Positions 7,164-27,778 of a stretch of DNA of 64,000 nt are shown here, piece by piece. Origin of the DNA: a virus; IMG/VR virus record IMGVR_UViG_3300027969_000086, positions 4,592 through 68,591 of that record. One strand, 5' to 3'. A program made the position numbers and the translations under genes. Under the pieces are notes generated by a model. That model made no database searches and had not been told where the DNA came from. It saw only the letters and a program-made list of their open reading frames with translations. Position 1 is the stretch's first letter. Each line of letters opens with the position of its first letter.

Positions 7164-7208
7164 TGAGAATGAATAAATACACTAACTTCAACAAACGCGG
7201 AGTGAATA

Positions 7209-13200: not shown

Positions 13201-15122
13201 TAACTGGAGCAATTCAAGCAGTTGATTTTGAAGGTTACGGACTCGGCGGTAGATTTGTTGCCGTAAGAAGCGGTAGCATTATTGGAGCAACCAGTGAAGA
13301 TGGAACAAGTTGGACCACAAGAACTAGTTTGATGCCAAGCGGAGCAGCATGGAAGGCCCTGGCATTTGGACAGTTTGAAGATGGATCGTCTGTAAATCGC
13401 AGTACTAGATTTGTTGCAGTAGCAGGAACTAGTGCAAATACAACTGGTGCATATTCTGAAGACGGTATAACATGGTCATCATCAACTATGGTAACCAGCG
13501 CGACCTGGGTTGATGTGGCCTACGGTGAAGGCAGATTTGTAGCAATTGCCAGCGACACTACCACTGTTAGAATCAGCTTAGACGGCGAAACCTGGGATCT
13601 AACAGGTGCATTACCTGCAACAGGATTCACTGCAATTACCTACGGTATGGGATTGTTTGTTGCTGTTAAGTCAGGCGGAACAGCAGCCGCAAGTTCAGTT
13701 GATGGTGTTACATGGATTTCTAGAACATTGCCAAGTAGCAGTGCATGGAATGCTGTATCATGGGGCAATGGTAGATTCGTAGCAATTTCCAACACCGCAG
13801 GATCTACAGTAGCAGCCTACAGCTTAAACGGAACTAGTTGGACTGCAAGTACATTGCCAGCTTCTGCAACTTGGACAAAAATTGCCTACGGTCAAGGTAT
13901 GTTCTACGCAGTTAGTACAACTACACAGGCTGCAAGCAGCCCAGACGGTGTACATTGGACTTCAAGAACCACAGGCGCAGCCGCAAGCGGATTTGCTGCC
14001 ATTACGCATGGTAACCCGCAGCGAATAGGATCATTTGCTGCTGTTGGTGCCGGTACTGGTACTGTAGCAGGTCAAGTATTCTGTGGCGCTACAACAAAGG
14101 CTCGTGCATATGTTTCAAGTGAGAAAATTGCAATAATTCGTATTGTTGAACCAGGATCTGGTTACGCCAGCGCACCAACAATTACAATCACAGACCCTAA
14201 CAACATCTATGAAGCACCAACCACAGTAAGATTAGGTGACGGAGTATTGGCTAACCCATCGTTTGTTAACCGTGGTACTGGGTATCAAACATGTAGTGCT
14301 GAAATTGATACAGGAGACGGCTATGCTGACTTCTTCCAAGACGGTGCATATGTTGCTGTTAGAAGAATTAGTTCAAGACCAGCACCTGGTGCTAACTTGG
14401 TATTTGCAGGCAGCGATATAACCTACAAAGTTGTTAGCGTGGTCAGCTTTAGAGGCGAATACGACGGTGCATATACTGCGTTCTTCCAAGTAAGTCCAAT
14501 TCTAAAAGTTTCAGACAATCTTGCAAATGGAACAGCAATCACAACTAGAATTCGATACAGTCAAGTTCGATTAACTGGACACGACTTCTTAGACATTGGG
14601 ACAGGCGGAGTTGGGACAACAAATTACCCTGACCATCCTACGCAGGCCCCAGTCCAGGCAAACGAGGCAGTTGAAAGCAACGGTGGACGAGTGTTCTTTA
14701 CATCAACGGACCAAGACGGTAACTTCCGAGTCGGCGACTTGTTTACTATTGAACAGTCAACTGGTATTGCTACATTGAATGCTGATGCATTTAATATTTC
14801 AGGACTGCAAGAACTTAGCTTGGGCAACTTGTCACTAGGCGGAGCAAGTGCAGCGATTACTGAATTCTCAACAGATCCGTTCTTTACAGCGGACAGCGAT
14901 TCGGTAGTACCGACACAACGAGCTATTAAAGCCTACATTGCTAGCCAAATTGGCGGCGGCGGTGCGAGCTTGATTGTTAACAGCGTAACAGCTGGCGACA
15001 TTTTGATAGGAACAAACCAAATTACTAACGTGACAGGTGGAACTATCAACTTTAATGCAACAGTAAACTTCACCGGCGGCCTAACTGGCTCGCCACTTGC
15101 ATTAAGCTATTTCTTAAACTAA
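7209..15122 (+). CDS. Giant virion structural/tail fibre-like protein (2637 aa), paralog of 1713..7163
   Basis: Same domain order and shared motifs (MA.FK..R.R..WK, SLDPGWGP, GHDFLDIGTG, VPTQRAIK.Y), plus extra helical C-x-R-D repeats; GGAG RBS. Confidence 0.75.
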   Translation: MAEFKLGRIRFVWKSDWATGTTYYKDDVVKYGGKVFICITGHAASADFYTDLDAIPSKWNQLSDGFTWENDWAVGTTYKTNDMVKYGGRLYVCRIPHTSAATLASGLEADLNLADSTLSKWDNVADGIDWKGTWTVSTRYKVNDVVKYGGINYICNTYHTSAASISLGLETDLGKWDVFNRGIEYRDAWTALTRYRVNDVVKYGGTLYICTLLHTSTSNFGVDINNWSSFVEGLQFENTWSSATSYQPGDIVRYGGNQYVATTVNLAAVPSTSTANWDLFSKGFSFTTDWSNATSYKVGEVVRLNGYTYLCILDHSGQTPPSATYWTRLNSGVLWKGEWANSTAYYLGDAVRYMSNVYICVQNHTSNDDDSTTFTDSTRSPSGDTEGVYWNIFNVGNEYAVMTNPGDMVYYNGDQGPARLPIGIEGQVLKVTSSGNPDWDYLGVVDQNYYVGNHGVDLPAPIHGRTSDKPWKTVRYALEQIEKGPRNPAAQRLLEMNRVFIQREVTEWIARQIISNASPFTTSFVYDEFKCERDVGFVVDRIIHDIGHGGNLKTLAAALSYINALDGGILFATAFDENGTGTYSRLAEQKDEDVAAYNYMLTVIGNVLNNQAPQVNYQVLNGDNSTAIVPQFIDADLVAETGVLATITDLVGIVTTALTDGNTTNLPDRTVPASLLNVKTGSYSETLPMIVPTDVCVLGDEKRAVTVSAAGSLIDISDAYYTVDTFNHVQSIVEDIVTGTTITRTTGNSLDQSINAPFSDATQATVTGRLVKLMKQQADFKLGTMHLASLTDPTGYNVSYLAGYGNARKLIKENKKFFQEEVVAYMVATYPTLSYGKVKTRRDAGYIVDAVIYDLTYGGNALSVKAGLAYYDGDDNTQPQLPTSIKAPTLAALAFLKDRLQAIAVNTPVTPLQTTVVQFRGTAGAAGTATFVGARLDEIITIINTGPSAVGTTVTLTDPTPANGVNSTTALISAYSTLSSANETIVTNVVDYLNTNFGSFRYNSAFCRRDSGYLVDAAYYDAAFGSNFWAVQNGLSYLRSQAGEVTANQLDQEIGSINYIKGRVAASVASDATAVSRANAAYVEIVDIIENGVANADALVYTSTGTANFTNARAQLVTNRAFIISTMVTWLTANVPGYVALSAAKKLLCQRDLGYAIDALAYDVNYGGNIATRNFCRSLFNNITGVGIESVNSGTTYTQLGVITAQIVRETYAGQDTSGTAASATEATRMTTLCGNISTVATAGNLSGLVAESLPSITWASAGIQTALGTLATDKTDIVKDTLQYISDNYSDFTYNHAKAERDATIVLKAVGYDFMFNTNYQSIKAAHAYLRLTASELFDQSTIIKQVTLASLEYTRTQAIANVGSNATAIARINTLMDDVYAIVYSGSREGDMCQTVERNKDYAALQLERNRDFIVAEVSAYIADTYTDTVTAATAATDVFTCSDTSWMKRNVAVRFTGTTFGGVTAGTTYYIQDVVSSTTFKIATTRNTATALDISANASGSMTVALYYNTELCARDVGTYIDALKWDLKYTSNYKSMFVARYYANAVTGSQEEDMYYLRNGTGLRNMTLRGLEGDLTPPNAYGTSRVTSGAYASLDPGWGPADFRTWITARSPYIQNCATFGNAAIGQKIDGSLHNGGNKSFVSNDFTQLISDGIGAWVTNNARAELVSVFSYYSHIGYLSENGGRIRGTNGNNSYGDFGSVAEGFDATETTKTAIVDNRYQYKSVVGTVTTDSDAIYRYEFDHAGNEYTEAAWLLIGPGNNAIAYQDEFRDDAVYQVRMIDNVDDSTAAPEADGNQGGFGYVTNTGTAQNGSSTTITLSATDNQLSTAYIGMVLHITSGNGIGQYAIINTYDAGTKIAAVIKETTGAGGWDHQVPGTTIVSPDSSSSYLIEPRISFTSPTYSAAATTLPTSGAWTAVAYGNTATTYTSVTGTYSGAGLSASFMVVRNGSKYQVTVQAGGTGYTRLETITILGTSVGGLAPTNNITVTITSVNSVTGAIQAVDFEGYGLGGRFVAVRSGSIIGATSEDGTSWTTRTSLMPSGAAWKALAFGQFEDGSSVNRSTRFVAVAGTSANTTGAYSEDGITWSSSTMVTSATWVDVAYGEGRFVAIASDTTTVRISLDGETWDLTGALPATGFTAITYGMGLFVAVKSGGTAAASSVDGVTWISRTLPSSSAWNAVSWGNGRFVAISNTAGSTVAAYSLNGTSWTASTLPASATWTKIAYGQGMFYAVSTTTQAASSPDGVHWTSRTTGAAASGFAAITHGNPQRIGSFAAVGAGTGTVAGQVFCGATTKARAYVSSEKIAIIRIVEPGSGYASAPTITITDPNNIYEAPTTVRLGDGVLANPSFVNRGTGYQTCSAEIDTGDGYADFFQDGAYVAVRRISSRPAPGANLVFAGSDITYKVVSVVSFRGEYDGAYTAFFQVSPILKVSDNLANGTAITTRIRYSQVRLTGHDFLDIGTGGVGTTNYPDHPTQAPVQANEAVESNGGRVFFTSTDQDGNFRVGDLFTIEQSTGIATLNADAFNISGLQELSLGNLSLGGASAAITEFSTDPFFTADSDSVVPTQRAIKAYIASQIGGGGASLIVNSVTAGDILIGTNQITNVTGGTINFNATVNFTGGLTGSPLALSYFLN

Positions 15123-15141
15123 ATACATTGGAGAAAACATT

Positions 15142-15462
15142 ATGGCAACAGGAAGATTAGGAATTCAGGACTGCGCAGCAACAACAAACTATTCTGTGTA
15201 CACAGTACCAGTAGGTTATTTTGCAGTGGTGTCTGTTTCGTTATGTAACAGAGGTGCAACATCCTCTAACGTTAGAATTTCAGTTAGTAGTGCGGCAACA
15301 CCTGCTACTGGCGAATATCTAGAATACGATTCAGAATTGGTAGCAAACGGTGTTCTAGAAAGAACAGGCATTGTTATGGACGCTGGCAAGATTCTAGTAG
15401 TACGCTCAAGCGCAGCAAGCGTTAGCGCAGTTGTAATGGGTATCGAAACCTCAACAGCTTAA
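15142..15462 (+). CDS. Small virion protein (106 aa)
   Basis: GGAG RBS, upstream ACTAAATA late-type box; similar to 989..1321. Confidence 0.6.
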   Translation: MATGRLGIQDCAATTNYSVYTVPVGYFAVVSVSLCNRGATSSNVRISVSSAATPATGEYLEYDSELVANGVLERTGIVMDAGKILVVRSSAASVSAVVMGIETSTA

Positions 15463-15477
15463 TTTAAGGAATAAATC

Positions 15478-16410
15478 ATGGGAAGAACCGTACGTAATGG
15501 TGTAGGAGGGCAGGCTGGATTTGGTAAGGTTACCATCGGCGCTAGTACCATTTCAACAACACAAGCCAACACCGACCTTACCATTGATCCTAACGGAACA
15601 GGTATTGTTAGAATTACCAACGACATGTTGCTGACAGCAGCTGGTGAACTGCGACTAGCAGACACTGACTCGTCAAACTGGGTTGGTTTCAAAAGTCCAG
15701 GGACCGTTGCAGCCAACAAAGTCTGGACACTGCCTGCTGCTGACGGTTCTGCTAACCAAGTATTAAAAACTGACGGCAGTGCAGCTCTAGGTTGGGCTGC
15801 AATTGCAGTTGCACTTGGAGATGAAACTGCTTCAGCATCCACTCATTATCCCTTGTTGCAGACTGCAACCAGCGGAACTGCCGCAACACTATACGCATCA
15901 AGTACAAAACTAGCCTTTCAGCCAAGCACTGGTACAATGACATTTCCTATTCTAACAGGAAGTACAGGCTCTGGAGCAAACCTTGTGCTGAGAAGCACAA
16001 GCAATGCTACAAAAGGACAAGTCTACATTGACGAAACCACAGTAAGCTCAAGTGTAACTACAGGTGCTTTGCGTGTTGGCGGTGGCGTTGGTATCAGTGG
16101 CACATTGTATGTGGCCAGTCTAGTTGAAACATCAAGTATTGCTATCAAAGAAAATATCAATCCTATCAGTGATGCACTAGATAAAATCATGCAGTTGACT
16201 GGTTACACCTATGATAGAACAGATATCAAAACAAAAAATGAAGCAGGATTTATTGCTGAATATGTCAATGACATTTTGCCCGGTATTGTAAACAAAGATG
16301 AAAATGGTCAAGCCAACGGTATTCAGTATTCAAAATTAACTGCCTACTTGGTTGAAGCAATCAAAACACTCAATCAAGAAGTTAAAGAATTAAAAGCAAA
16401 ACTAGGATAA
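15478..16410 (+). CDS. Tail fibre protein with C-terminal intramolecular chaperone (peptidase S74) domain
   Basis: ETSS..IKENI.PI.DALDKI..L.GYTYD...GFIAE.V...Y.KL.AYLVEAIK followed by a terminal coiled coil. Confidence 0.8.
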   Translation: MGRTVRNGVGGQAGFGKVTIGASTISTTQANTDLTIDPNGTGIVRITNDMLLTAAGELRLADTDSSNWVGFKSPGTVAANKVWTLPAADGSANQVLKTDGSAALGWAAIAVALGDETASASTHYPLLQTATSGTAATLYASSTKLAFQPSTGTMTFPILTGSTGSGANLVLRSTSNATKGQVYIDETTVSSSVTTGALRVGGGVGISGTLYVASLVETSSIAIKENINPISDALDKIMQLTGYTYDRTDIKTKNEAGFIAEYVNDILPGIVNKDENGQANGIQYSKLTAYLVEAIKTLNQEVKELKAKLG

Positions 16411-16414
16411 AAAG

Positions 16415-17224
16415 ATGGCGATATTACAGAATACCAGTTTTAGAGGAACAACGAACACGTTGCAACTGCCTTCTGGAACCACAGCCCAACGCCCAGCAAG
16501 TCCTATAGAAGGCATGATTCGTTTCAATTCCACAATAGGAATAAACGAAGTGTTCATGAACAATGCTTGGGAAAACATGACATCTCCCATAGCCAACACA
16601 AAATGTTATCTTCCGTTGTTTGGAACAGCCGACGGAGACATCACTGACACAACCAGCGGTGTTGTAGGAACATTAAGTGGCGGCACAAGAAATTATCTGC
16701 AAAGCGGATACAATGGACTTAGACTCGAATCTGATGCTTACCTAGATATCATGACCACAGAGCTTAGAAAACTAGACGGTAACCCTTTTTGGACCATTGA
16801 ATTCTGGTTGTACAAAACCGGCGGCGTTGGCAGCTCAGCAGAAACCATGGTTGAACTATGTCACTACACTCGTGGATTGCTATATAGAGCAAACGACAGT
16901 GACGGAACCAACAACTATTGGAGAGGTACATCTATTAACTTAGGTACAACTACTAGTAACGCATGGGTTCATCATGCTGTAGTTGGCTATGGAGCAAACA
17001 TCAAAGTATTTAAAAACGGAACACAGGTAGCCGACACCATGAATGCCGTGGGAGTTTCAAGATTTGCTGATCCGATAACCACAGGTGGACATGATTTGTG
17101 TCGCATCGGCCGTTCAAGTCACACTAGTGGTCAGTATACCAACGGAACATTTAGAAAATTCAAGGTAAGTAACAGCGCAAGATATCTAGCAAACTTTACT
17201 TCATCTTCAGTATATCCTTTATAA
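16415..17224 (+). CDS. Fibre-associated protein with concanavalin A/LamG-like domain
   Basis: WTIEFWLY, W.H.AVV, KVFKNG, FKVSNSARY..NFT motifs; N-terminal LQLPSGTTAQRP..GMIRFN module. Confidence 0.7.
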   Translation: MAILQNTSFRGTTNTLQLPSGTTAQRPASPIEGMIRFNSTIGINEVFMNNAWENMTSPIANTKCYLPLFGTADGDITDTTSGVVGTLSGGTRNYLQSGYNGLRLESDAYLDIMTTELRKLDGNPFWTIEFWLYKTGGVGSSAETMVELCHYTRGLLYRANDSDGTNNYWRGTSINLGTTTSNAWVHHAVVGYGANIKVFKNGTQVADTMNAVGVSRFADPITTGGHDLCRIGRSSHTSGQYTNGTFRKFKVSNSARYLANFTSSSVYPL

Positions 17225-17236
17225 GGTAAGAAATAA

Positions 17237-19126
17237 ATGGCGATTTTACAAAGTACAACAATTGGAGGAACTGGTTATCTACAACTACCAGTTGGAACCA
17301 GTGCCGCCCGCCCAACAGAGCCAGCTTGGACTGTAGTATCGTTGACCGCAACAGGCAGCGGTAACTGGACAGTTCCAGCAGGCGTTACACAAGTCGATGT
17401 ACTTGTAGTTGGTGGTGGTGGTGGTGGTGGCTGCTGGGTAGGTGGTGGTGGTGGTGGTGGTGGCGTTCTTTATCGTGAAGGCTACGCGGTTACAGCAGGC
17501 AGCACCATAGCATATACAGTAGGTGTAGGCGGAACTGGTGAATATAATCCGGGAGGCTACAGTGGGATGCCTAGAGCAACCAACGGTGGTGCATCAACCT
17601 TTGGTGCTATTACAGCACTAGGTGGCGGCCGTGGCGGCAGCTGGGACACATATCCTGCAACAACAGGAGCTAGTGGCGGTGGTAACGGATATTCAACGGT
17701 TGGCGCAGCCGGCACAGCTGGACAGGGATTTCGAGGCGGTACAGGACGAGGTGATAGCACTAACGGCTACCCAACAGGTGGTGGCGGTGGTGCAGGCGGC
17801 CCCGGCGGTAATTGGCGTGAAGCAGGAAGTGGGGAACTTACCACAGGGCCTTGGGGTCAAAATGGTAAAAGTGGAGACGGTGGTCCTGGACTAGGATTTA
17901 ACATTTCCGGCACAATGACCTTTTATGGTGGTGGTGGTGGTGGTGGCATCCACGGAAGTAGCAGTGATGCCCGTCCGGGATTTGGTGGTATCGGTGGCGG
18001 TGGTGACGGCAATGGCCCGTCAACAACACTAGCAGCACATCAAACTGCACGAGCAAACAGCGGTGGCGGTGGAGGTGGCGGTGGCAACGGTGGTGGATCA
18101 CCTAGTTATGGTGGCGCGGGCGGCAGTGGTGTTATTATCATTAGATACACTACAGGCGACGCAGTTAACCTAAGACAAGGCGCAATCCGCTTAAACACAC
18201 AAAAAGGACTTGAGTTCTATCGCGGTGAAGGCCGCTGGTTGAACTTGTCGATGCCATTCCCATACAGAACAGTTATTACCACTGGTTATATGGCCGGTGG
18301 ATATAAAGATTCAAGTCCGTGGAACAACGTTAATAGAATTTATCATTCAACAGATGTATCGGTTAACCTAGGCGACGGCGCAATTGCAAGAACCTTTAAC
18401 TATCAAAGCGGCTCCTGCGGTCTAAACATTGGCTACATATGGGGCAGCGGAAACGGCCATGCGGTAGCAAGTAATTATGTACAAGGGTTTAACATGCGAA
18501 CTGAAACTGCATATAATCCGCCGATTACTGCGTTGACCAACAATAGATACAACTCTGGTACAATATTCAACGAACATTATTTTTCTTTCACTTCGGGCGG
18601 CGGGGCAGCTGAAATTGAAGAATACAATTTGACCAACGAAGTCAAACAAACTTCCCCAGCAGGCGGCTTTTCCTCTACAGGTCAATGGGGTATGAGTCAC
18701 GAAACCTACGGTACTTGGTATTGGGAAGAAGATTCAAGAAACTTCCACTATGCTGCAAGAACAGTTACAGCACAATTTGGCGGACAGCCTAGTGCATACC
18801 ATCAACAGAAATCTGTACAAAGTAAATACTCAAATAACTATGCAGGTAACGAAGGCAGCTATAACGGTGGATACAATCTTCGTAGAACCAATATGTATAC
18901 TAGAACAAGTAGCGGTACTGTGGCCAAACCTAGAACCAACAACGGAGAAGAAAACTATAGCTTAGGGCAAGACTGGCAATACCTACTAGGCGAATATAAT
19001 GGCGCTCAAAACAACAATAGTTGGAAGTTCTATTATTCAACCGAATCTGGTTTTGCTGGCAGCAGCAGCATGGAGCCAAAAGGGCATGCCGGCTCAAGTT
19101 CTGGCGTTTGCTTCTGGAGATCATAA
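17237..19126 (+). CDS. Glycine-rich domain plus C-terminal propeller-like virion protein (629 aa)
   Basis: WTVPAGVT.VDVLVVGGGGGG...GGSGVIIIRY glycine-rich domain; C-terminal repeats beginning GYMAGGY. Confidence 0.7.
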   Translation: MAILQSTTIGGTGYLQLPVGTSAARPTEPAWTVVSLTATGSGNWTVPAGVTQVDVLVVGGGGGGGCWVGGGGGGGGVLYREGYAVTAGSTIAYTVGVGGTGEYNPGGYSGMPRATNGGASTFGAITALGGGRGGSWDTYPATTGASGGGNGYSTVGAAGTAGQGFRGGTGRGDSTNGYPTGGGGGAGGPGGNWREAGSGELTTGPWGQNGKSGDGGPGLGFNISGTMTFYGGGGGGGIHGSSSDARPGFGGIGGGGDGNGPSTTLAAHQTARANSGGGGGGGGNGGGSPSYGGAGGSGVIIIRYTTGDAVNLRQGAIRLNTQKGLEFYRGEGRWLNLSMPFPYRTVITTGYMAGGYKDSSPWNNVNRIYHSTDVSVNLGDGAIARTFNYQSGSCGLNIGYIWGSGNGHAVASNYVQGFNMRTETAYNPPITALTNNRYNSGTIFNEHYFSFTSGGGAAEIEEYNLTNEVKQTSPAGGFSSTGQWGMSHETYGTWYWEEDSRNFHYAARTVTAQFGGQPSAYHQQKSVQSKYSNNYAGNEGSYNGGYNLRRTNMYTRTSSGTVAKPRTNNGEENYSLGQDWQYLLGEYNGAQNNNSWKFYYSTESGFAGSSSMEPKGHAGSSSGVCFWRS

Positions 19127-20163
19127 TGGCAATTTTAGCAGCTAACTCATCAATAAATTCAACAGGCTTTTTACAGCTACCGTCAGATAATTCTACTAGC
19201 GGTACAGCTGGACAACTTAGATTTAATCCTAGAAGTAACATGATTGAAAGTTACGGTGGCTCAATAAACAGCAGCTGGGAGTTTGTAGGCATACCTTTCC
19301 AAGCACGAGATGTTCAGGTTGCCGGATATCTACACGGTGGTTATGCTGCCAGCGTTGTATGGAATAATACCAACAGATTAACATTCGCCACAGACACATC
19401 TGTTAACCTTGGTGATAATCAAGAAGCTGGACACAACTATCAAAGCAGCGGATTTAGTCTAACAAGAAACTATACATGGGGTGCCAGCGGTTCTCACTGT
19501 GTTGCAGCCAGCAATATCATCTGTTTTGACATGGTCACTGAAGTATCGATTACTACAGGATATACTCGCAACATGCCAGGCAGTACTATTAACACTGGTA
19601 CTATTCAACAAGAACACTATTTTGCCTATATTGCACCGTCAAGCTACCTCAGCGGACAAATTTACGAATTCAACTTGACTACTCAAACACTGGGCACAAC
19701 CTACGGCACAGGTAACAACACCACCAGTTGGGGTGCTTGGACTGAACACTTTGGTATTTTTTATGGTGGTACAGAAAGAATTTTCAATTTTGCCACAAGA
19801 ACACCATATGATCGTTCAGCATCTACTGCAATAGCCGGAGATCCTTATCAACATAACATACAGACTAGACAGGCAACAACCATTGCAGGCCGCGAAGGTA
19901 ATCCAAGCACCAATTGGCGTATTACTAACTATCAAAACAATGCCAGCTATAATGCTATAGGTGCTAAACCTGCATATAGCGGTGAAGAAAATATGGTCAG
20001 TGCAAGAGATTGGGGATATTGCCAAGGTTTTTACAACGGAAGTCACGTTAATACAACCTACAAAGTTCAATTTGCAACTTGGGGAGGATTTGTTGGGTCA
20101 AGCTCAATGGAACCAAAAGGCAAAAGTGGTAACAGTTCCGGAACTATGTCATGGCGTCCATGA
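19126..20163 (+). CDS. Propeller-like virion protein, paralog of the C-terminal half of 17237..19126
   Basis: Start at the TAATG overlap (MAILAANS...); shares GY..GGY...WNN.NR...TD.SVNLGD and SSSMEPKG..G.SSG...WR with the upstream ORF. Confidence 0.7.
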   Translation: MAILAANSSINSTGFLQLPSDNSTSGTAGQLRFNPRSNMIESYGGSINSSWEFVGIPFQARDVQVAGYLHGGYAASVVWNNTNRLTFATDTSVNLGDNQEAGHNYQSSGFSLTRNYTWGASGSHCVAASNIICFDMVTEVSITTGYTRNMPGSTINTGTIQQEHYFAYIAPSSYLSGQIYEFNLTTQTLGTTYGTGNNTTSWGAWTEHFGIFYGGTERIFNFATRTPYDRSASTAIAGDPYQHNIQTRQATTIAGREGNPSTNWRITNYQNNASYNAIGAKPAYSGEENMVSARDWGYCQGFYNGSHVNTTYKVQFATWGGFVGSSSMEPKGKSGNSSGTMSWRP

Positions 20164-20168
20164 CCCTT

Positions 20169-20176
20169 TATAAATA
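20169..20176 (+). promoter_or_regulatory. T4-type late promoter TATAAATA
   Basis: Exact T4 gp55 consensus in the intergenic gap upstream of 20199. Confidence 0.7.
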
Positions 20177-20198
20177 GACACACAATAAAGGAAACACT

Positions 20199-21044
20199 AT
20201 GACTGACCGTAGAATGCAATATAACTCTAGTCGTTTTAATAGCGAAATTAACAGCGATGTTAGTATGCTATCAGAAGAAGATCAGAGTTTGATCAAAATT
20301 GCAATGAACAAAGAATGGACCAACCCAAAATTCAAACTAAGATGGTTTGTTGGCCAGGCACAAATTACTCCATTTGCCAAGTTCCGTCAATGGCTTCTTG
20401 AAATTAAAGCAAAGGAAGAATCCATTGAAAACATGGAATATGAAATTGCCAAGCACGAAGTAGAGTGCGAGCGTTTTAGAAGAATGGCTGCAGAAGCCAT
20501 TGACGACTTAGATCGTCGCCTTGCCGAGCTTGAATTATGGAATAGAGAACGCCTAAGCTATACCAGCAAGCGCAGACTGCAAGACTGGTATCTAGAACGC
20601 CAGCATCTAATTGACTTATGCACCGAATTCATGGCTTCTGAAGAAGCAAAGCTCCCAGACGGCTCTGGCAGAACTTACATGGACATCATGAATACTGCCG
20701 AAGAAGATGTCTACGAAAGCCAATATTGGACTAATAGATTAGCCAAGCAGGCTGCATGTGATATGATTTTTTATGGTAGAATCAACAGCGGTAACATGGA
20801 TGCTATCTTAATGTTAAGCCCAGATCAACAGTCTGAGACTCTAGCATTAACTGTTAATTTTGCAACCAAATTACAAGCATATCAAGGACAATTACAAAGT
20901 GCGGCAGACAAACAACTAGGAGTTGGAACATTTAACACCGACGCCCTTACCACACCAAAAGAATTAATACAAGATAATTCGCTAGGATTAGCGCAAGAAA
21001 AGGAGATATTTGATGTTTATAATTTACGAAACGATAGCCAGTAA
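20199..21044 (+). CDS. Hypothetical coiled-coil protein (281 aa)
   Basis: Helical E/R/L-rich central segment; AAGGA RBS. Confidence 0.65.
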   Translation: MTDRRMQYNSSRFNSEINSDVSMLSEEDQSLIKIAMNKEWTNPKFKLRWFVGQAQITPFAKFRQWLLEIKAKEESIENMEYEIAKHEVECERFRRMAAEAIDDLDRRLAELELWNRERLSYTSKRRLQDWYLERQHLIDLCTEFMASEEAKLPDGSGRTYMDIMNTAEEDVYESQYWTNRLAKQAACDMIFYGRINSGNMDAILMLSPDQQSETLALTVNFATKLQAYQGQLQSAADKQLGVGTFNTDALTTPKELIQDNSLGLAQEKEIFDVYNLRNDSQ

Positions 21045-21558
21045 TGATCCAAGGCGTGACAGCCGGATACAAGATATCGGTTCATTTTGGCATTATACGA
21101 TAGCCAGAGTAGATCCAAGTGTCGCCAACGGAGTTCAAGTTGACTGGCTTAAGGGTGATGTAACCACAGAACAAATTGCCATGGCTCACAAGTTGGCAAC
21201 TTCAGTAGACGGTGAAATCACTGTTGTAAATGCAAACATTAGTTCGTATGCTGATATTTCTTATCCTAGCAGTGGTGGCAATCTAGGCTATACCAAACAA
21301 ACTTATTTCTTAACTGATGTTGATAAAACTTATACTAAAACTTTCTTGCAAAAAGTTTGTAAAATACATATCAAAAATCACCTAGTCTGTGACGGAACAA
21401 AAAATCCCGTTGGTACAGATGTTAAGTTAAATGAAGAAATTGATAATGCATATGATGTCAACCAAATGCATATATTGATGAGGAATTATTTTGAAATGGA
21501 TTGCAGTGCCTATACTATAAATCGACCAAGGGATCCCAAGTTTGTTGTGAAATGGTAA
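21013..21558 (+). CDS. Hypothetical protein
   Basis: AGGAG at 21001, ATG at 21013 (track start is TTG 21010); overlaps the previous stop. Confidence 0.6.
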   Translation: MFIIYETIASNDPRRDSRIQDIGSFWHYTIARVDPSVANGVQVDWLKGDVTTEQIAMAHKLATSVDGEITVVNANISSYADISYPSSGGNLGYTKQTYFLTDVDKTYTKTFLQKVCKIHIKNHLVCDGTKNPVGTDVKLNEEIDNAYDVNQMHILMRNYFEMDCSAYTINRPRDPKFVVKW

Positions 21559-21565
21559 TATCACA

Positions 21566-21612
21566 TTGCGAAGTCCAACTAAAGGTGTTATACTAAGTAG
21601 TATACACCTTTA
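21566..21612 (+). promoter_or_regulatory. Sigma70-like promoter overlapped by an inverted repeat
   Basis: TTGCGA-N17-TATACT with extended TG; palindrome TAAAGGTGTTATACT-aagt-AGTATACACCTTTA at 21580-21612. Confidence 0.55.
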
Positions 21613-21621
21613 TTTACGACT

Positions 21622-23301
21622 ATGCGAAAAATATTCAGCGTACCACTTAATCCCAAACTAAATCCAGAGCAGTACTCAGAGTTCCTTAGTTTTCTTTCAC
21701 AATACAAAGATTATATTAGAGATGTGTATTTTACATCTCGCATCAAACCTTTTGTGCAAGATGCTATGGGAGATGTATTTCTACTAGAGGAGTATCACTT
21801 CAGTGCTATTGAAGCAGCATTGAATATACAAAAAACCCTAGGAATTTCAGTAAGCGCAACATTTAATAATATCGAAATCCCTGCCACACAACAAAATTTA
21901 GATTTGTTTATTAAAAATTTTAAACCATTGTATGATGCAGGGATCCGTAGTGCTACAATTCCGCACACACATTGGATGGCAACTGGCCAGATCAAAGCTG
22001 CCTTTCCTGAGTTGTATGTAAAAAATACCATACTTCGTGAAGTACACACTGCACAGGAAGTAGTTAATCTTGCTAATTACGGGTTTGATTATATTAATCT
22101 TGATAGAGACATGATGCGAGATCATGTCCTCCTTCGAACAATTAAAAAAGCAAAAGCATACATCAAAGAAACCACAGGCAGAGATATTGCAATTAGCCTA
22201 TTAGGTAACGAAGGATGTGTAGGTGGTTGCAGCATGATGGTTGAGCATTTTCAATTCAATAACAATCGATCCGGGGATACGCCGCAATACTTCAACGATG
22301 CTATTAGCAGAACCAGTTGTAAAAAATGGGAAGTTGAAGACCCTGCAATATTTTTAAAAACTGCAAACTTTCCGCCATGGAGAGCAGACTGGGATCAATT
22401 TATCGACGAGCTAGGCATTGATAGTATCAAAATGCATGGCCGTGAAGCAATCACTCGTCTGTATGAAACTATGGACATTATTAAAAACTATGCAGAAGGC
22501 AAAGACATATTGTTTCAAGGATTCGAAAATTATCTAGAAGAAACAAACCTAACAGAAAAGCCAATAAACATTTGGCGTGAAAAAATTAAAACTTGTCAGT
22601 TCGAATGTTGGTCATGCCAATACTGCGATAAAATTTACGATAAAAAATCCAAGTTGGTATATTCTGAATTAGTTCAACATACAGCACAATGTATTTCAGA
22701 TTCCGGAATACCAACAATGCGATTAGATATCCCCGGTCTTACCAGTCCTAGAGTACAGACGCTGTTAAATTCTCTAGCTAAGGGTGTAAACACCTATTTA
22801 GAAGTGGGCGCCGCAATGGGTGCAACCTTTTGTGCCGCTATTAAAGGCAATCCAATACATGCAATTGCTGTTGACAATTGGAAAGAACAAATTCAACCTG
22901 CAAGAAATGATTTAAATCAGCTTCCTAGGAACAATGTTCAAACATTTATTGAAAATGTTAAGAAGCATAAAGGACTAGCTGAAGTAGATATTTTAAACGG
23001 CGACTTATTTAAAGCAGATGTTTCTCAATTCTCATCCAACATTGAGATGTTTTTTTATGACGGCCCTCATGATTTTGAAAGTACAAAGCGAGCGGTTGAG
23101 CATTACTATCCAATTCTAGCCAATGAGTGTATTATTGTATTTGATGATGCAAATTGGCAATCAGTTGTTGAAGGTGCGCAGGCCGGCATTAACAGTGTAG
23201 GCGCTCGAGTTACTTTTGAAAAGATGATGTTGAACTCCCTAGAAAGCCCAAACGAATGGTGGAATGGGCTATACATTGTTGTAATTAGAAAAAATGATTA
23301 A
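21622..23301 (+). CDS. Peptidase U32-family (Fe-S) domain fused to a class I SAM methyltransferase
   Basis: N-half: GFDYINLDRD, NEGCVGGC...H...SC, GIDSIKMHGRE, CxxxCxxCxxC. C-half: YLEVGAAMGAT, AVDNW, FFYDGPH, IIVFDD (Methyltransf_24-like). Confidence 0.75.
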   Translation: MRKIFSVPLNPKLNPEQYSEFLSFLSQYKDYIRDVYFTSRIKPFVQDAMGDVFLLEEYHFSAIEAALNIQKTLGISVSATFNNIEIPATQQNLDLFIKNFKPLYDAGIRSATIPHTHWMATGQIKAAFPELYVKNTILREVHTAQEVVNLANYGFDYINLDRDMMRDHVLLRTIKKAKAYIKETTGRDIAISLLGNEGCVGGCSMMVEHFQFNNNRSGDTPQYFNDAISRTSCKKWEVEDPAIFLKTANFPPWRADWDQFIDELGIDSIKMHGREAITRLYETMDIIKNYAEGKDILFQGFENYLEETNLTEKPINIWREKIKTCQFECWSCQYCDKIYDKKSKLVYSELVQHTAQCISDSGIPTMRLDIPGLTSPRVQTLLNSLAKGVNTYLEVGAAMGATFCAAIKGNPIHAIAVDNWKEQIQPARNDLNQLPRNNVQTFIENVKKHKGLAEVDILNGDLFKADVSQFSSNIEMFFYDGPHDFESTKRAVEHYYPILANECIIVFDDANWQSVVEGAQAGINSVGARVTFEKMMLNSLESPNEWWNGLYIVVIRKND

Positions 23302-24808
23302 TAGAACACAAAAAATAATTATATTTGGCGGTGGTACAAGTGGTTGGCTGTCAGCAGCATACCTTACACACAATTTACAAGTGCCCTGTGAAATCACTTT
23401 AATTGAAGATACTACATTAGGCCCTATCGGAGTCGGCGAAGGAACACAACCACTGACAGCTCAGTTCTTGTTTCAATGTGGACTTAATCCGGCCCAATGG
23501 ATGAAACCCAGTAATGCAGCATTTAAATTAGGTGTAGAACTCAGCGGATGGAACGACGAGCCTTATTTTGTAGACAATGACGGATTACAAAGTTCGTTCA
23601 TAGCTGAAGATTTATATACCAGCGACTATTTCATTAAAAAACCCTATAGCGAATTTGCAAAGTTTCATCCCGCCTATCAACTAGCTAAGGCTAACCTAAG
23701 TCCAAAAATGTTTGATCATTTAGACACTAGCTTTGGCGCAAACAACGAAGGCTACGGTGCCGTACATTTTTCTGCATACGAAATTTTAGATGCTCTTAAA
23801 GAACTGATAGGCAATAAGGTCAAACATATTGATACTAGAATTGCCAAGGTTGAAAAAGACATACACGGCATCACTAAACTAATTGACGACAACGGACAGA
23901 GTTATTCTGCAGATCTTTATATTGACTGTAGTGGATTCAATTCTATACTATTGGAAAAAACACTAGGAGTTGCATTTACATCTTACGATAAATGGTTGCC
24001 TAATGATCGTGCTGTAGTAATGCCTACGCAATTTAAAGACCCGGAAACTGAATGCTTCCCATATACAAAAGCAACTACAATGACTGCCGGATGGAGATTT
24101 ACTATCCCTATCTATACAAGAACAGGCAACGGCTATGTTTACAGCAGTAAATTTATCAGCGACGAAGACGCTGAAAAAGAACTAAGAGAAACAATTGGAG
24201 AATTTGAGGCCCCGGCAAAATTCTTAAAAATGAAGTGCGGGTATCATAAAGAAATTGCAGTTAAGAATGTGGTAGCAGTAGGACTCAGTGCAGGATTTGT
24301 AGAGCCATTAGAAGCAACAGGTATCACCTTTACTACCGCAGTGATTAAATCAGTAACCGATTTGCTGAATATGAATAGAAATATATGGAATCAACCAATC
24401 AAAGATTTAATTAATCGAGGCTTCTATGAAATGAACATGGAAATTCTAGCATTTGTTTGGGCGCACTATCATTTCTCAAAGAGGTCAGATACACCATTCT
24501 GGCAAAGCATTAGACAACAAGATATCAAAGATCTGCCTGAAGATGTACAATTCATACTAGGTCATTTCTATCCTCGTCCGGGAAGATTCCTATACTTTAG
24601 TAAAAGCTCTATGTTTAATATTGTTCAGTGGTTCAGTGTGTTACATGCCGGCGGGGCCTACGACAATCTAGAAAAAATTGACAGACCAAACGAAAACGAA
24701 TATGCAGAATATTTTATTGATGTTCAAAACTATAGAGTAGAGCAAGCAAAAAAACGATTTCCGAATCATTACGCTTACTTAGATCAATGGTATAAAAATA
24801 ATTCTTAA
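23294..24808 (+). CDS. prnA: Flavin-dependent tryptophan halogenase family protein
   Basis: GGGTSGW FAD motif, IGVGEGT, AAFKLG (catalytic Lys position), DLYIDCSGF, GFVEPLEATG, RSDTPFW. Confidence 0.85.
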   Translation: MINRTQKIIIFGGGTSGWLSAAYLTHNLQVPCEITLIEDTTLGPIGVGEGTQPLTAQFLFQCGLNPAQWMKPSNAAFKLGVELSGWNDEPYFVDNDGLQSSFIAEDLYTSDYFIKKPYSEFAKFHPAYQLAKANLSPKMFDHLDTSFGANNEGYGAVHFSAYEILDALKELIGNKVKHIDTRIAKVEKDIHGITKLIDDNGQSYSADLYIDCSGFNSILLEKTLGVAFTSYDKWLPNDRAVVMPTQFKDPETECFPYTKATTMTAGWRFTIPIYTRTGNGYVYSSKFISDEDAEKELRETIGEFEAPAKFLKMKCGYHKEIAVKNVVAVGLSAGFVEPLEATGITFTTAVIKSVTDLLNMNRNIWNQPIKDLINRGFYEMNMEILAFVWAHYHFSKRSDTPFWQSIRQQDIKDLPEDVQFILGHFYPRPGRFLYFSKSSMFNIVQWFSVLHAGGAYDNLEKIDRPNENEYAEYFIDVQNYRVEQAKKRFPNHYAYLDQWYKNNS

Positions 24809-24817
24809 GGATTTAAC

Positions 24818-25231
24818 ATGTTAACTGAGACAACACTAGGCGAATATGTACTGTATACAAATACAATACGACAAGCTAAAGATGCTTACACTGCTAGAAA
24901 AGTACAAAAAGACAAAAAGAAATTAAAAACTTGGATGAATGCATTATTAGAAGATAGAGATCTTATAGTATTTCATAAAGAAAACGGCAACGAAAAGATG
25001 TCAGTGGTAACAAGAAAAACTAATAATATAATATTTGCCGATGCACCTCTTTCTTGGGAAACAGTTGGTCCTCAGACATATCTTGTTTTAGATTATGTAT
25101 TGGGTTATGAGCTGCCAAGTACATTTGCAATAGCAATTCATGCCAACGACATTACAAAATTTATGTGCAAAGCAGAAGGTATAACAGAACTTAGCAGAAC
25201 TGTACAGTGGTATTCATATGGACACTATTGA
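24818..25231 (+). CDS. Hypothetical protein (137 aa)
   Basis: AAGGA RBS; AT-rich ORF. Confidence 0.55.
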   Translation: MLTETTLGEYVLYTNTIRQAKDAYTARKVQKDKKKLKTWMNALLEDRDLIVFHKENGNEKMSVVTRKTNNIIFADAPLSWETVGPQTYLVLDYVLGYELPSTFAIAIHANDITKFMCKAEGITELSRTVQWYSYGHY

Positions 25232-25952
25232 ATTTTTTACAGCAGCACCGGGTCTTTCGGATCTATTTCCAATCATACCAGCCAGCCAATATAGAGCTAA
25301 CTGGATGGCCGCGGCCAAGAACGACTGGGTCGCCAACAAAGATAAATTTACTAAGTCTCGACAGACACATATATTTCAATGTCCTGGAATATTTGACATG
25401 TTCAATCACGGGTACATTATTCCTTTATGGCATGATCTAATAATTCGAACAGACGGACCCACCCGCCCATTTTCGTGGAGTATACCTTCGGGAGCATTAA
25501 ATTCCTATCGAGGAAAAGAAGTTGTGGGAACGCATAAACCCGGTCTTGATAAATTTATCCCTAAGCGTCCTTGGAGTCACCAACAGGTTATAAAATTAGA
25601 TACTCCTTGGAATATAATAGCACCAAAGGGTGTAAAGTTCTTAATGTTGCCTATTGCATATCCCGACGAATTTACATTTGAAAATGCCGCAGGCATTTTA
25701 GACCCTGCAGTTAGTACAGAAATAAATTTACAAATTCATTGGAATGTACTACAAGGAGAAACACTTATCAAAGCAGGCACGCCAATCGGACATTTAATTC
25801 CACTATCCGAAAAAAACTACGATTTAGTTGTAAGAGAAATGTCCGATAACGATAAAATGTGGATAGAAAAACGAAACTTGTTTATGAGTGTATTTTTTAG
25901 ACAGAACAGAAATCTGCTAAAAGATTTCTATCACAAGCATTTTAAAAAATGA
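25218..25952 (+). CDS. Hypothetical phage protein (244 aa)
   Basis: PIIPA...W, CPG..D....GYIIPLW.D, PW.I..PKG, IKAGTP pattern recalled from large-phage accessory proteins. Confidence 0.6.
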   Translation: MDTIEFFTAAPGLSDLFPIIPASQYRANWMAAAKNDWVANKDKFTKSRQTHIFQCPGIFDMFNHGYIIPLWHDLIIRTDGPTRPFSWSIPSGALNSYRGKEVVGTHKPGLDKFIPKRPWSHQQVIKLDTPWNIIAPKGVKFLMLPIAYPDEFTFENAAGILDPAVSTEINLQIHWNVLQGETLIKAGTPIGHLIPLSEKNYDLVVREMSDNDKMWIEKRNLFMSVFFRQNRNLLKDFYHKHFKK

Positions 25953-26278
25953 AATTTACAAAGATTTCGTTTACTACAAGATTTACCGAGCAAGGGCAAA
26001 TATACACAACATATCGAGCTCTTGAAAAGATATTTGGGCGCCCCTATTTCGGGCCCGGCGAAGAAGACAACCCACCTACGGACGGAATGTTAGCTAGAGT
26101 CACTTGTCAGTGGCGGCTGCGGTATGAAGACGGCACTGTGGCAATCGTATACGACGATCGTCAAAAAACCACAAACTATGCTCCGTATTACTGGCGAGTT
26201 GGCGGATTTAGTGGCCGATCTTTTGAACTAGTACAACAAACAATCAAAGAATACAATGAACAACAGAAACATAAATAG
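25949..26278 (+). CDS. Hypothetical protein (109 aa)
   Basis: ATGA overlap; TY..L..IFG.P...VT.QW...W.VGG pattern. Confidence 0.55.
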   Translation: MKFTKISFTTRFTEQGQIYTTYRALEKIFGRPYFGPGEEDNPPTDGMLARVTCQWRLRYEDGTVAIVYDDRQKTTNYAPYYWRVGGFSGRSFELVQQTIKEYNEQQKHK

Positions 26279-26301: not shown

Positions 26302-27777
26302 ATGCCATCCAATAGAAATCCAGTTGTAAATTTAGTAAGATTTACACCGAATGATGAAGACTTCCTTAATAGAAAGCTAGGTTCGCGAGGGGAAGTTTTC
26401 TATGATCAAGATAACGATACCCTTAGAATTTATAACGGTGCTGATACTGCTGGTATTAAGTTAGCCCGAAACGACCTCATTGGGGTGTCAGCAGCATCTA
26501 TGCGGGATGCTTTGATTATCAGCAGATCCGCCACAGTCTACTATACTACAACTATTGTAGGTCCACAGAGTCCTGATACAGGAAACAAATATGCATTAAA
26601 TGGCGAGTACAGACCCAAGCCAAATTTTGTAACCGGCTATACCTATATATTTGATCAAAGCGATGACACCAATGTCTACTGGCCTAATGCCAACGGCACT
26701 ACACAAAATAGACACCCATTGAATTTTTCATCAGATAATCTAAGCGGTGTTCGAGGTGGCGGTACCGCCTATACTTCAAATGTAGTATATAAATTAGATG
26801 GCGAAATTGTAACATACGCAACTTATAACAGTGTGGCATTTGATAATGCCGACACTCGTACGGTACAGATTACAGTAACTAACGCTACCCCAACAACACT
26901 ATATTATTGGTGTTATAATCACCTTGCTATGGGAGAAGAAATTGCCGTAGCAGATCCAGGCAGTGGTGCAGGTGGTGCAACAGTTTCAGTTGGCAATACA
27001 CTACCAGAAGATCCAATAAGTGGAAATTTATGGCTTAATACTGACAATGGTAGATTATATGTTTACATAGATGACGGTACATCTACACAGTGGATGCAGC
27101 CAAGTGTGCCTATGCCTAGCTTAGGCAGTATATCATTTACTGGCACAGTTATAGATTCAGTTGACTCTAGTTCGATATCATTTACACCTGCGGTGACTTT
27201 CAATTCAGATATACGCATTGAAAATGATTTAATTATTGCAGGCAATATTGTATACGGAAACGAAAAATTAGCCACAGAGTCATATGTTAGCACAGCACTT
27301 GAACAAGTGGTTGTTGAAGCACTTTCAATAAATGCTTCAACTGTTGGATTAGGCAATGTAACTAACGAATCAAAAGCTACAATGTTCACTAGTCCAACAT
27401 TTACCGGAACTTCTACATTCCAACAATCTGTCGAAGTATTGAATACTAAAACAGGGGCAACAGGAACTGTTGATCACGATTATTCTACAGGAGCCATTTG
27501 GTATCATACTAGTTTAGCTGATAATTTCACAGCTAATTTTACCAATGTGCCTACCACTGCTAGTCGAGCTATCTCAATTGTTCTTGTATTAATACAAGGA
27601 GCTACCCCGTATGTTCCAAATGTATTACAGATAGACGGTACACCTGTAACTATTAATTGGCTAGCTGGATTAACACCATCCGGAAACGCCAGCAAAAAAG
27701 ACATTGTTAGTTTTACATTTACTAGAATAGCATCGAGTTGGACAGTTTTTGGCAGTTTAAGCTCATTCGGAACATAA
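26302..27777 (+). CDS. Virion structural protein with cupredoxin-like motif (491 aa)
   Basis: CATAAATA upstream; RHPL...LYYWCYNHLAMG; P.SGNLWLNTDNGRLY module. Confidence 0.65.
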   Translation: MPSNRNPVVNLVRFTPNDEDFLNRKLGSRGEVFYDQDNDTLRIYNGADTAGIKLARNDLIGVSAASMRDALIISRSATVYYTTTIVGPQSPDTGNKYALNGEYRPKPNFVTGYTYIFDQSDDTNVYWPNANGTTQNRHPLNFSSDNLSGVRGGGTAYTSNVVYKLDGEIVTYATYNSVAFDNADTRTVQITVTNATPTTLYYWCYNHLAMGEEIAVADPGSGAGGATVSVGNTLPEDPISGNLWLNTDNGRLYVYIDDGTSTQWMQPSVPMPSLGSISFTGTVIDSVDSSSISFTPAVTFNSDIRIENDLIIAGNIVYGNEKLATESYVSTALEQVVVEALSINASTVGLGNVTNESKATMFTSPTFTGTSTFQQSVEVLNTKTGATGTVDHDYSTGAIWYHTSLADNFTANFTNVPTTASRAISIVLVLIQGATPYVPNVLQIDGTPVTINWLAGLTPSGNASKKDIVSFTFTRIASSWTVFGSLSSFGT

Positions 27778-27778
27778 T

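Follow-up and report, generated by a model that had tools for sequence, protein, structure and literature searches.

The stretch of DNA described here (the window, 64 kb; positions 4,592 to 68,591 of the IMG/VR virus record IMGVR_UViG_3300027969_000086) contains a gene at 21622-23301 whose 559-residue product joins a divergent U32-like barrel domain to an S-adenosylmethionine (SAM) methyltransferase-like domain. Genes and their products are named below by the first nucleotide of the gene. The IMG/VR record is 68.6 kb long and is judged about 20% complete, and the gene content of the window is that of the structural region of a T4-like myovirus. Two giant fibre proteins (1713-7163 and 7209-15122) are followed by more fibre-like genes, and beyond these lie a baseplate-fibre connector, neck genes on the minus strand, the tail sheath, the tube and the large terminase, with structural genes flanking the 21622 gene and its neighbours on both sides. 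A megablast comparison of the region with 50,697 phage records gave no match in DNA, and the cultured phages nearest to it in protein sequence are marine cyanomyoviruses (about 43% identity). All six open reading frames (ORFs) described in a first-pass annotation of this DNA are present, all on the plus strand (Table 1).

Neighbouring genes were compared across 89 loci encoding the fusion, which comprised three annotated cyanophage isolates (P-HM2, S-CAM4 and Syn33) and otherwise IMG/VR contigs (all 12 from a single-protein scan and the best 80 of at least 581 confirmed stretches from an alignment scan). We note that this set is redundant (not dereplicated) and skewed to close relatives of the window. 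One hidden Markov model (HMM) per window gene was run in two rounds on the ORFs of the loci, and a neighbour was counted only where the flank was long enough.

Table 1. Features of the window around the 21622 gene, and the frequency of its neighbours in loci encoding the fusion (aa, amino acids; nt, nucleotides).
Feature	Position	Strand	Description or basis	Loci
Fibre-like protein, 269 aa	16415..17224	+	Shares the MAIL...LQLP N-terminal module with both propellers; context, not core	
Propeller paralogue 1, 629 aa	17237..19126	+	Fibre-type N-terminus, Gly_rich_2 at 38-304, Kelch-type propeller at about 315-629	
Propeller paralogue 2, 345 aa	19126..20163	+	Fibre-type N-terminus and six-bladed Kelch-type beta-propeller at 61-345 (modelled)	
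TATAAATA, T4-type late-promoter-like element	20169..20176	+	22 nt before the 20199 start codon	
Conserved helical protein, 281 aa, phrog_1409	20199..21044	+	Constant neighbour of the U32-like gene	
Small conserved protein, 181 aa	21013..21558	+	No known family	
Divergent U32-like TIM-barrel domain, about residues 1-350	21622..22671	+	Fold, profile match, bridging homologue, invariant Cys	
Class I SAM methyltransferase domain, O-methyltransferase-like fold	22672..23301	+	Pfam and fold	
Flavin-dependent (tryptophan-type) halogenase, 504 aa	23294..24808	+	Trp_halogenase; lineage-specific accessory	
Two small genes (137 aa; 244 aa, phrog_7084)	24818..25952	+	Travel with the halogenase	
Propeller within 4 kb upstream of the fusion				57/58
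20199 family upstream of the fusion				64/75 within 1.8 kb; 72/75 within 2.2 kb
21013 family within 0.8 kb upstream of the fusion				53/80
Glycine-rich domain upstream of the fusion				17/54
Halogenase directly downstream of the fusion				48/82
25218 family downstream of the fusion				43/77

The N-terminal domain of the 21622 protein is related to U32 proteins in fold and, remotely, in sequence. A model built from a 79-row alignment had a predicted local confidence (pLDDT) of 93.5 and a predicted template-modelling score (pTM) of 0.89, and was compared with 48,161 PDB representatives without the Foldseek pre-filter. Residues 1-280 matched the U32 protein Mk0906 (5d88) with a Z of 17.1 and a root-mean-square deviation (rmsd) of 3.1 over 226/247 residues. 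This was the best TIM-barrel match, and the best match other than methyltransferases, among the 48,161 chains, and the only other barrel in the top 50 was MTHFR (Z 13.0, rmsd 5.6). Foldseek run with the whole two-domain model returned mostly pyruvate kinases and methyltransferases, which shed no light on the barrel. A phmmer search with residues 1-350 against 1.84 billion representatives gave 266 relatives. One bridging homologue, P0274 (E 1.7e-11 to the window domain), matches the U32 family PF01136 with 38.1 bits (1.4e-9) and another, P0270, with 20.1 bits; these are the two of the 79 aligned members that match PF01136. When the 79-row N-domain alignment was compared by hhalign with seven canonical U32 proteins from three genomes, the match had a probability of 93.2% (E 2.9e-7, query columns 25-186), and the closest ESM Atlas clusters carried PF01136 in 20% of their members. 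NCBIfam and a sequence search of the PDB likewise gave no U32 match.

The first-pass annotation had predicted a U32-type TIM barrel here, and both the fold match to Mk0906 and the hhalign homology to canonical U32 proteins bear this out. Of the two Pfam families that it expected, Methyltransf_24 was found and PF01136 was not called; because Pfam gives no U32 match, the assignment rests on fold and remote homology. Fold, bridging homologues, profile comparison and language-model neighbours agree that the domain is a divergent U32 relative and a distinct family.

The cysteine motifs previously read from the translation are present as N196-E-G-C199-x3-C203-x5-H209...C233 and C325-x3-C329-x2-C332-x2-C335. 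The seven cysteines (C199, C203, C233, C325, C329, C332 and C335) are invariant in the 79 aligned homologues, down to 23% identity, and E197, E208 and H209 are nearly so. We presume from this conservation that the cysteines are ligands of a metal or an iron-sulphur (Fe-S) cluster; U32 hydroxylation factors are marked by such a cluster and by hydroxylation that depends on prephenate and needs no O2. Canonical U32 proteins carry the PROSITE signature E-x-F-x2-G-[SA]-[LIVM]-C-x4-G-x-C, which, searched as a regular expression, was present in none of the 79 family members versus six of the seven canonical proteins. With Pfam silent and the signature missing throughout, membership of the canonical U32 family did not hold up. 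Where the canonical motif sits, the family has E197-x-C199-x3-C203, an equivalence that is positional only. The C-terminal Cx3Cx2Cx2C shows the opposite distribution, occurring in 79/79 family members versus 0/7 canonical U32 proteins. Pfam searches of 10 homologues of odd length revealed no other fusion partners.

The remainder of the 21622 protein is methyltransferase-like, as had been proposed. Residues 393-509 match Pfam Methyltransf_24 (PF13578) with 42.6 bits against a cut-off of 26.3. In the model, the closest solved folds of this domain are cation-dependent O-methyltransferases (VIA-align: 5x7f, Z 17.3; MeT1 6g7d, 16.7; 8c9v, 16.4; then 3tr6 and 4oa5). Matches also include TrmR (5zw3, Z 15.4), the methyltransferase of 5-hydroxyuridine (ho5U). 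Residues D480 and D509, candidate equivalents of the metal ligands of COMT, are at least 90% conserved across 16 fused homologues. The fusion is full-length in 121 of 126 phage records, with 41-44% identity over 99% of its length, and the methyltransferase part is present in 88 of the 89 loci.

The combination of a U32-type domain with an O-methyltransferase mirrors the yrrMNO operon, the only case so far known in which U32 proteins have a methyltransferase as genetic partner, and we read 21622 as a two-step enzyme for this reason. The analogy of hydroxylation followed by methylation, drawn in the first-pass annotation, has a real precedent: in Bacillus subtilis, the yrrM(trmR)-yrrN-yrrO operon encodes two U32 proteins and an O-methyltransferase that convert ho5U to 5-methoxyuridine (mo5U) (PMC6599085). 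In 21622, the U32-like domain would hydroxylate an sp2 carbon in an oxygen-independent step, and the C-terminal domain would next use SAM to methylate the hydroxyl oxygen so formed, so that one polypeptide would carry out the two successive steps of TrhP1/TrhP2 and TrmR. The likeness to TrhP1/TrhP2 (YrrO/YrrN) with TrmR (YrrM) in B. subtilis, and to TrhP and RlhA in Escherichia coli, lies in the U32-type barrel and in its coupling to an O-methyltransferase-like partner, as in yrrMNO (PMC6599085). In contrast to these systems, 21622 holds the domains for both activities in a single polypeptide, is not recognised by Pfam as U32, and has phage fibre genes as neighbours. Its family also has E-x-C-x3-C...E-H...C in place of the canonical signature, together with the C-terminal Cx3Cx2Cx2C.

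This precedent raises the possibility that the substrate is RNA, with the phage enzyme acting as TrhP plus TrmR (or as RlhA) on the tRNA or rRNA of host or phage, where pyrimidines would be converted to their 5-hydroxy and subsequently their 5-methoxy forms. Such a modification could tune the decoding of phage codons, and the location among fibre genes would be historical. The characterised U32 proteins of nucleic acids all act on pyrimidine C5, and the B. subtilis operon adds an O-methyltransferase (PMC6599085). Several tRNA methyltransferases besides TrmR were among the fold matches of the C-domain, and JGI names several homologues 'predicted O-methyltransferase YrrM'. However, the essential TrhP residues E162, C170 and C177 lie inside the canonical motif (PMC6599085), which the family lacks, and Pfam assigns the C-domain to Methyltransf_24, with small-molecule or sugar O-methyltransferases as the top fold matches. 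We saw no RNA-binding domain, and an RNA substrate would leave unexplained the constant linkage to the propeller and 20199 genes, which extends to Ralstonia phage RP12, where there is no methyltransferase. We therefore consider RNA modification unlikely.

That linkage is the most consistent property of the locus (Table 1). The sole propeller exception, L066, has two propeller copies on the opposite strand. Among the exceptions for the 20199 family at 2.2 kb, L061 and L066 have the gene nearby on the opposite strand, and L060 has a flank of only 2.3 kb. The 21013 family was found further upstream in eight more loci, and in P-HM2 it lies ahead of the helical gene. The order of propeller, helical protein and fusion is conserved in P-HM2, S-CAM4 and Syn33 (tblastn and HMM; GC351, GC353 and GC354), and the only 21013-family match among these isolates was in P-HM2, at its GC352 gene. 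Annotation notes in P-HM2 and Syn33 label the cassette genes T4-LIKE GC 351, 352, 353 and 354.

The most stringent test of this linkage comes from RP12, a phiKZ-related jumbo phage (PMC5468394). Its ORF139 is a stand-alone U32-like gene (E 2.6e-100 to the family HMM) with no methyltransferase, directly preceded by the 20199 homologue ORF140 (1.6e-35), and a propeller homologue, ORF142 (1.1e-9), lies two genes upstream. As RP12 keeps this trio, we take these three genes to be the core, to which the methyltransferase was added in the marine lineage and the halogenase later still. The linkage of propeller, 20199, 21013 and U32 genes suggested in the first-pass annotation thus persists in related and in very distant phages, rather than coming apart among relatives. 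Three single-protein scans of IMG/VR gave no stand-alone U32-like genes, and RP12 is the sole independent stand-alone phage context examined. Two further genes stand beside the trio in RP12: ORF138 (L091:10016-11056), a membrane transporter-like gene (DUF401, 40 bits; CitMHS) that directly follows and overlaps the U32-like gene, and ORF143, a collagen-repeat gene just upstream of the propeller gene.

The constant core of the proposed cassette would comprise one to three fibre-anchored Kelch-type propellers, the helical 20199 protein, often the 21013 protein, and the U32-like enzyme. Because the enzyme gene accompanies propeller and helical-protein genes in phages whose backbones are unrelated, we infer that its substrate belongs to that module, and a side chain of a propeller protein or of a co-made partner would be the most likely one. 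This protein target is drawn from the linkage alone.

The propeller proteins themselves are paralogues, as had been noted, with 36% identity between 17237 and 19126 over 325 residues (E 2e-44). The fibre-type N-terminal module described earlier was also confirmed, since both start MAIL...G(Y/F)LQLP. We observed that the consecutive genes 16415, 17237 and 19126 share MAIL...T(G)xLQLPxG within their first 25 or so codons, and that the first 60 or so residues of the 16415 protein match many phage families in PHROG. From sequence, this module is probably a common docking module that attaches different distal domains to the virion. The 17237 protein matches Pfam Gly_rich_2 (8.6e-19, residues 38-304) and phrog_1417 (1.6e-46). 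An AlphaFold model of the 19126 protein, built from a 60-row alignment of related loci, had a mean pLDDT of 84.6, with residues 61-345 mostly above 85 and the first 60 or so of low confidence. This model matched KLHL17 (6hrl; VIA-align Z 29.1, rmsd 2.4, 268 aligned residues), KLHL12 (2vpj, Z 28.1) and Keap1 (6fmp, Z 27.7), and the best Foldseek match had an E of 3.9e-13. Residues 61-345 are thus modelled as a six-bladed Kelch-type propeller. Pfam Kelch repeats were found neither in the 19126 protein nor in the C-terminal domain of 17237. Among the viral models of BFVD, the best match to the 19126 protein was a 'Sericin 1-like protein' of cyanophage S-RIM12 (8e-24), and the fourth was a 292-residue protein of RP12.

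The likeness to KLHL/Keap1-type propellers thus covers six blades (Z 29.1 and rmsd 2.4 over the 268 residues), and Kelch-like proteins are also named among the virion proteins of phiKZ-like jumbo phages, a likeness of names only. The window proteins differ from known Kelch propellers in their phage fibre-type N-module, their own invariant residues (G72, Y73, Y105, E287, G335, S337 and S338 in the family) and their constant linkage to a U32-like gene. The C-terminus of the family is also conserved, as ...PKG[HK]xGxSS[GA]xxxWR[DN]. In three loci (L012, L071 and L090), the enzyme gene is preceded by a tandem array of three to five propeller paralogues, which makes the propeller gene the expanding, variable member of the cassette; such expansion is as expected for a host-recognition protein.

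The other two proteins of the core are less readily placed. The 20199 protein matches phrog_1409 (1.7e-37) and had no relative in Pfam (E<=10), the ESM Atlas or a PDB profile search. A charged helical stretch at about residues 60-135 suggests a coiled coil. The 21013 protein had no match in Pfam, PHROG or NCBIfam.

The glycine-rich domain of 17237 and the fibre setting bear on a different role for the enzyme, in which the U32-like domain would be a metal-dependent assembly factor or a protease (the historical 'U32 collagenase') for glycine-rich or collagen-like fibres, with the helical protein as chaperone. The glycine-rich domain of 17237 is long, the cassette sits within fibre genes, RP12 has the collagen-repeat ORF143 just upstream of its propeller gene, and glycine-rich-domain ORFs adjoin U32-like genes in two of 25 genome-bin loci. 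The domain was, however, found upstream in only 17 of 54 loci, and the fused SAM methyltransferase and seven invariant cysteines suggest redox or transfer chemistry. The protease activity of U32 proteins is in any case doubtful, and we regard an assembly or protease role as very unlikely.

The cassette appears to have its own transcription signal. The element TATAAATA, which we take to be the T4 late-promoter consensus, has a single exact match in the 64 kb window, and ATAAATA occurs 15-29 nt before the starts at 7209, 26302 and 28870. The TAAATA core was present at -50 to -11 of the 20199 homologue in 19 of 45 non-redundant relatives, versus 2.9 on average and at most 9 in 200 shuffles; the exact 7-mer was present in only six of the 45. 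From these motifs we infer that a late-promoter-like element heads a unit from 20199 to about 26278, which would be a late operon. ATAAATA is rarer than expected in the window (11 matches versus 20.6). Its plus-strand sites are at 7173, 20170, 26271, 28848 and five further positions, several of them 5-30 nt before gene starts, where late-promoter-like elements would be expected, and these sites split the fibre region into units at 7209-20163, 20199-26278, 26302-28846 and 28870 onwards.

Downstream of the fusion, and overlapping it as first described, lies a PrnA-like halogenase; the overlap is 8 nt. The 23294 protein matches Pfam Trp_halogenase (PF04820) with 322.4 bits (6.4e-96), and its PDB relatives include 9luq (2.4e-65), PyrH 2wet (4.7e-65) and VirX1 6qgm (1.9e-56). 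As in VirX1 and the cyanophage halogenases of the PrnA/PyrH/RebH family, Trp_halogenase is full-length, with GxGxxG (GGGTSG) at residue 12 and a lysine, K78, whose equivalence is positional only. The enzyme differs from VirX1-type halogenases in having WxFxIP (W267-R-F-T-I-P) rather than WxWxIP, and in the overlap of its gene with a U32-methyltransferase gene; variants of WxWxIP occur among flavin-dependent halogenases (PMC8407142). It is about 31% identical to the halogenases of Syn9 and Syn10. In Syn9, two halogenases are located in the same post-fibre region, followed by a 25218 homologue (gp43, L004:10580-11368, 35% identity), and no fusion is found there.

Placement of the halogenase in the conserved core, as initially envisaged, was not borne out. 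It follows the fusion in 48 of 82 loci, and none was found near the cassette in P-HM2, S-CAM4 or Syn33, or in RP12, so it is an add-on, a clade-specific accessory. Together with the two small genes that follow, it would form a clade-specific extension of the 20199 transcription unit and may halogenate the same or a related substrate. The 244-residue product of 25218-25952 has no Pfam or PDB relative. Its family (phrog_7084) accompanies cyanophage halogenases in two distant lineages, and in L014 and L066 a 25218 homologue directly follows the fusion without a halogenase. The 25218 protein could be a halogenase partner.

Another conceivable reading is that the enzymes act on a free metabolite, with the U32-like hydroxylase, the O-methyltransferase and the halogenase decorating an aromatic compound (a quinone, an indole or similar) during infection in the manner of natural-product tailoring enzymes. 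UbiU/UbiV-type U32 proteins act on the quinone ring, and in fold the methyltransferase domain comes closest to small-molecule O-methyltransferases. In RP12, the transporter-like gene comes right after the U32-like gene, and U32-like copies in Dehalogenimonas adjoin reductive dehalogenase genes. Cyanophage halogenase VirX1 accepts diverse free aromatic compounds (PMC8407142). However, genes that would build the scaffold are not nearby, and 34 of 82 loci lack the halogenase, as do the isolates examined. The partners that never vary are not metabolic enzymes but propellers of the fibre type and a helical protein. We find small-molecule tailoring fairly improbable.

Cellular relatives of the U32-like domain have neighbours of their own. 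In Dehalogenimonas CP139473.1, three U32-like copies of the cellular subfamily (L094, L097 and L100) each lie about 1.5 kb or less from an RdhA gene, and two of them adjoin a B12-binding radical-SAM protein fused to a PqqD (peptide-recognition) domain. In a 90 kb contig of a Proteobacteria bin (L096:6890-7885), a six-bladed NHL/DUF5128 propeller is encoded directly upstream of a cellular U32-like homologue. This pairing echoes that in the phages with an unrelated propeller family, and was the sole case among the neighbours scanned in five loci on large genome-bin contigs (L096, L103, L107, L109 and L114).

Overall, we tentatively favour the reading that these genes form a conserved, late-expressed accessory cassette of the tail-fibre module, in which 21622 hydroxylates and then O-methylates a substrate from that module. 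We rank a protein substrate first, with low absolute confidence, followed by RNA, a free aromatic metabolite, and an assembly or protease role. Several observations weigh against the favoured reading. PF01136 matches neither the whole 21622 protein nor residues 1-350, even at E<=10, and the hhalign match ends at about residue 186, ahead of the cysteine motif. Because the Pfam U32 match and the canonical signature are absent, the chemistry may differ from that of TrhP, RlhA and UbiU/V. By the 2019 account in PMC6599085, not even the canonical U32 proteins had been demonstrated to hydroxylate directly in vitro. All loci except RP12 come from one broad marine lineage, and genes of a syntenic structural region can stay linked by descent even when their functions are not coupled. 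In RP12, ORF139-142 do not carry the 'virion' label that ORF136 has, and among 25 loci of the cellular subfamily of 400-450 residues, none had a propeller (propC) or 20199-family neighbour. No fusions of 20199 with the U32-like domain were found among 275 collected proteins or among longer proteins, the latter being weak evidence. Complex prediction for the U32-like domain (1-350) with the 20199 protein gave no answer (score 0.00, mark 0.32), which says nothing either way. One specific target was considered and rejected, namely the C-terminal tryptophan tail of the propellers as substrate of the halogenase or hydroxylase: in the model, residues 340-344 form a confident, well-packed last propeller strand. 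This tryptophan is present also in the halogenase-less loci L012, L063, L066 and L073.

The cassette corresponds in part to genes that have been catalogued without a function. The clusters T4-GC351-354 (nomenclature of Sullivan et al. 2010), comprising a 'sericin 1 precursor-like protein' and three hypotheticals, correspond to the cassette gene for gene in P-HM2 and Syn33, with the order conserved, and carry no functional annotation in the phage records examined. The lineage of the window differs from these in that no cultured phage is more than about 43% identical to it, in its pair of propeller paralogues, of which one carries a glycine-rich insert, and in its acquisition of the halogenase and two small genes. 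Sullivan et al. (2010) mention prnA among cyanophage genes, as well as ten co-distributed virion proteins. The first-pass annotation knew of no description of such a system; literature searches likewise found none on the enzyme or the cassette, although the genes have long been known as the unannotated T4-GC351-354. The kind of enzyme, U32 plus methyltransferase, is known; the branch, the cysteine set, the fusion and the fibre context are new. The family is abundant, with 1,910 clusters at E<=1e-5 in the protein collection, at least 581 confirmed IMG/VR stretches and 126 sequenced phage isolates, and despite this abundance, the records examined name it 'hypothetical protein'.

These findings extend the U32 superfamily to what appears from sequence to be a new branch with its own invariant cysteine set, fused to the putative enzyme of the next step. 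Its carriers are viruses of oxygen-producing cyanobacteria, where an O2-independent Fe-S hydroxylase would be unexpected. The long-puzzling cyanophage halogenases also gain a defined genetic partner in one clade. Since the cassette is present in cultured phage-host pairs, with P-HM2, Syn33, S-RIM2, P-SSM4 and RP12 as cultured carriers, the question of its substrate is directly testable. In its most specific form, which we regard as doubtful and quite improbable, the protein-substrate reading would make the fusion the first protein-acting U32 enzyme, hydroxylating and then O-methylating, with no need of O2, an aromatic residue in the phage's own receptor-binding Kelch propellers, with a peptidyl halogenase adding a halogen in one marine clade. 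If this were true, phage host-recognition proteins would bear enzyme-installed methoxy and halogen groups.

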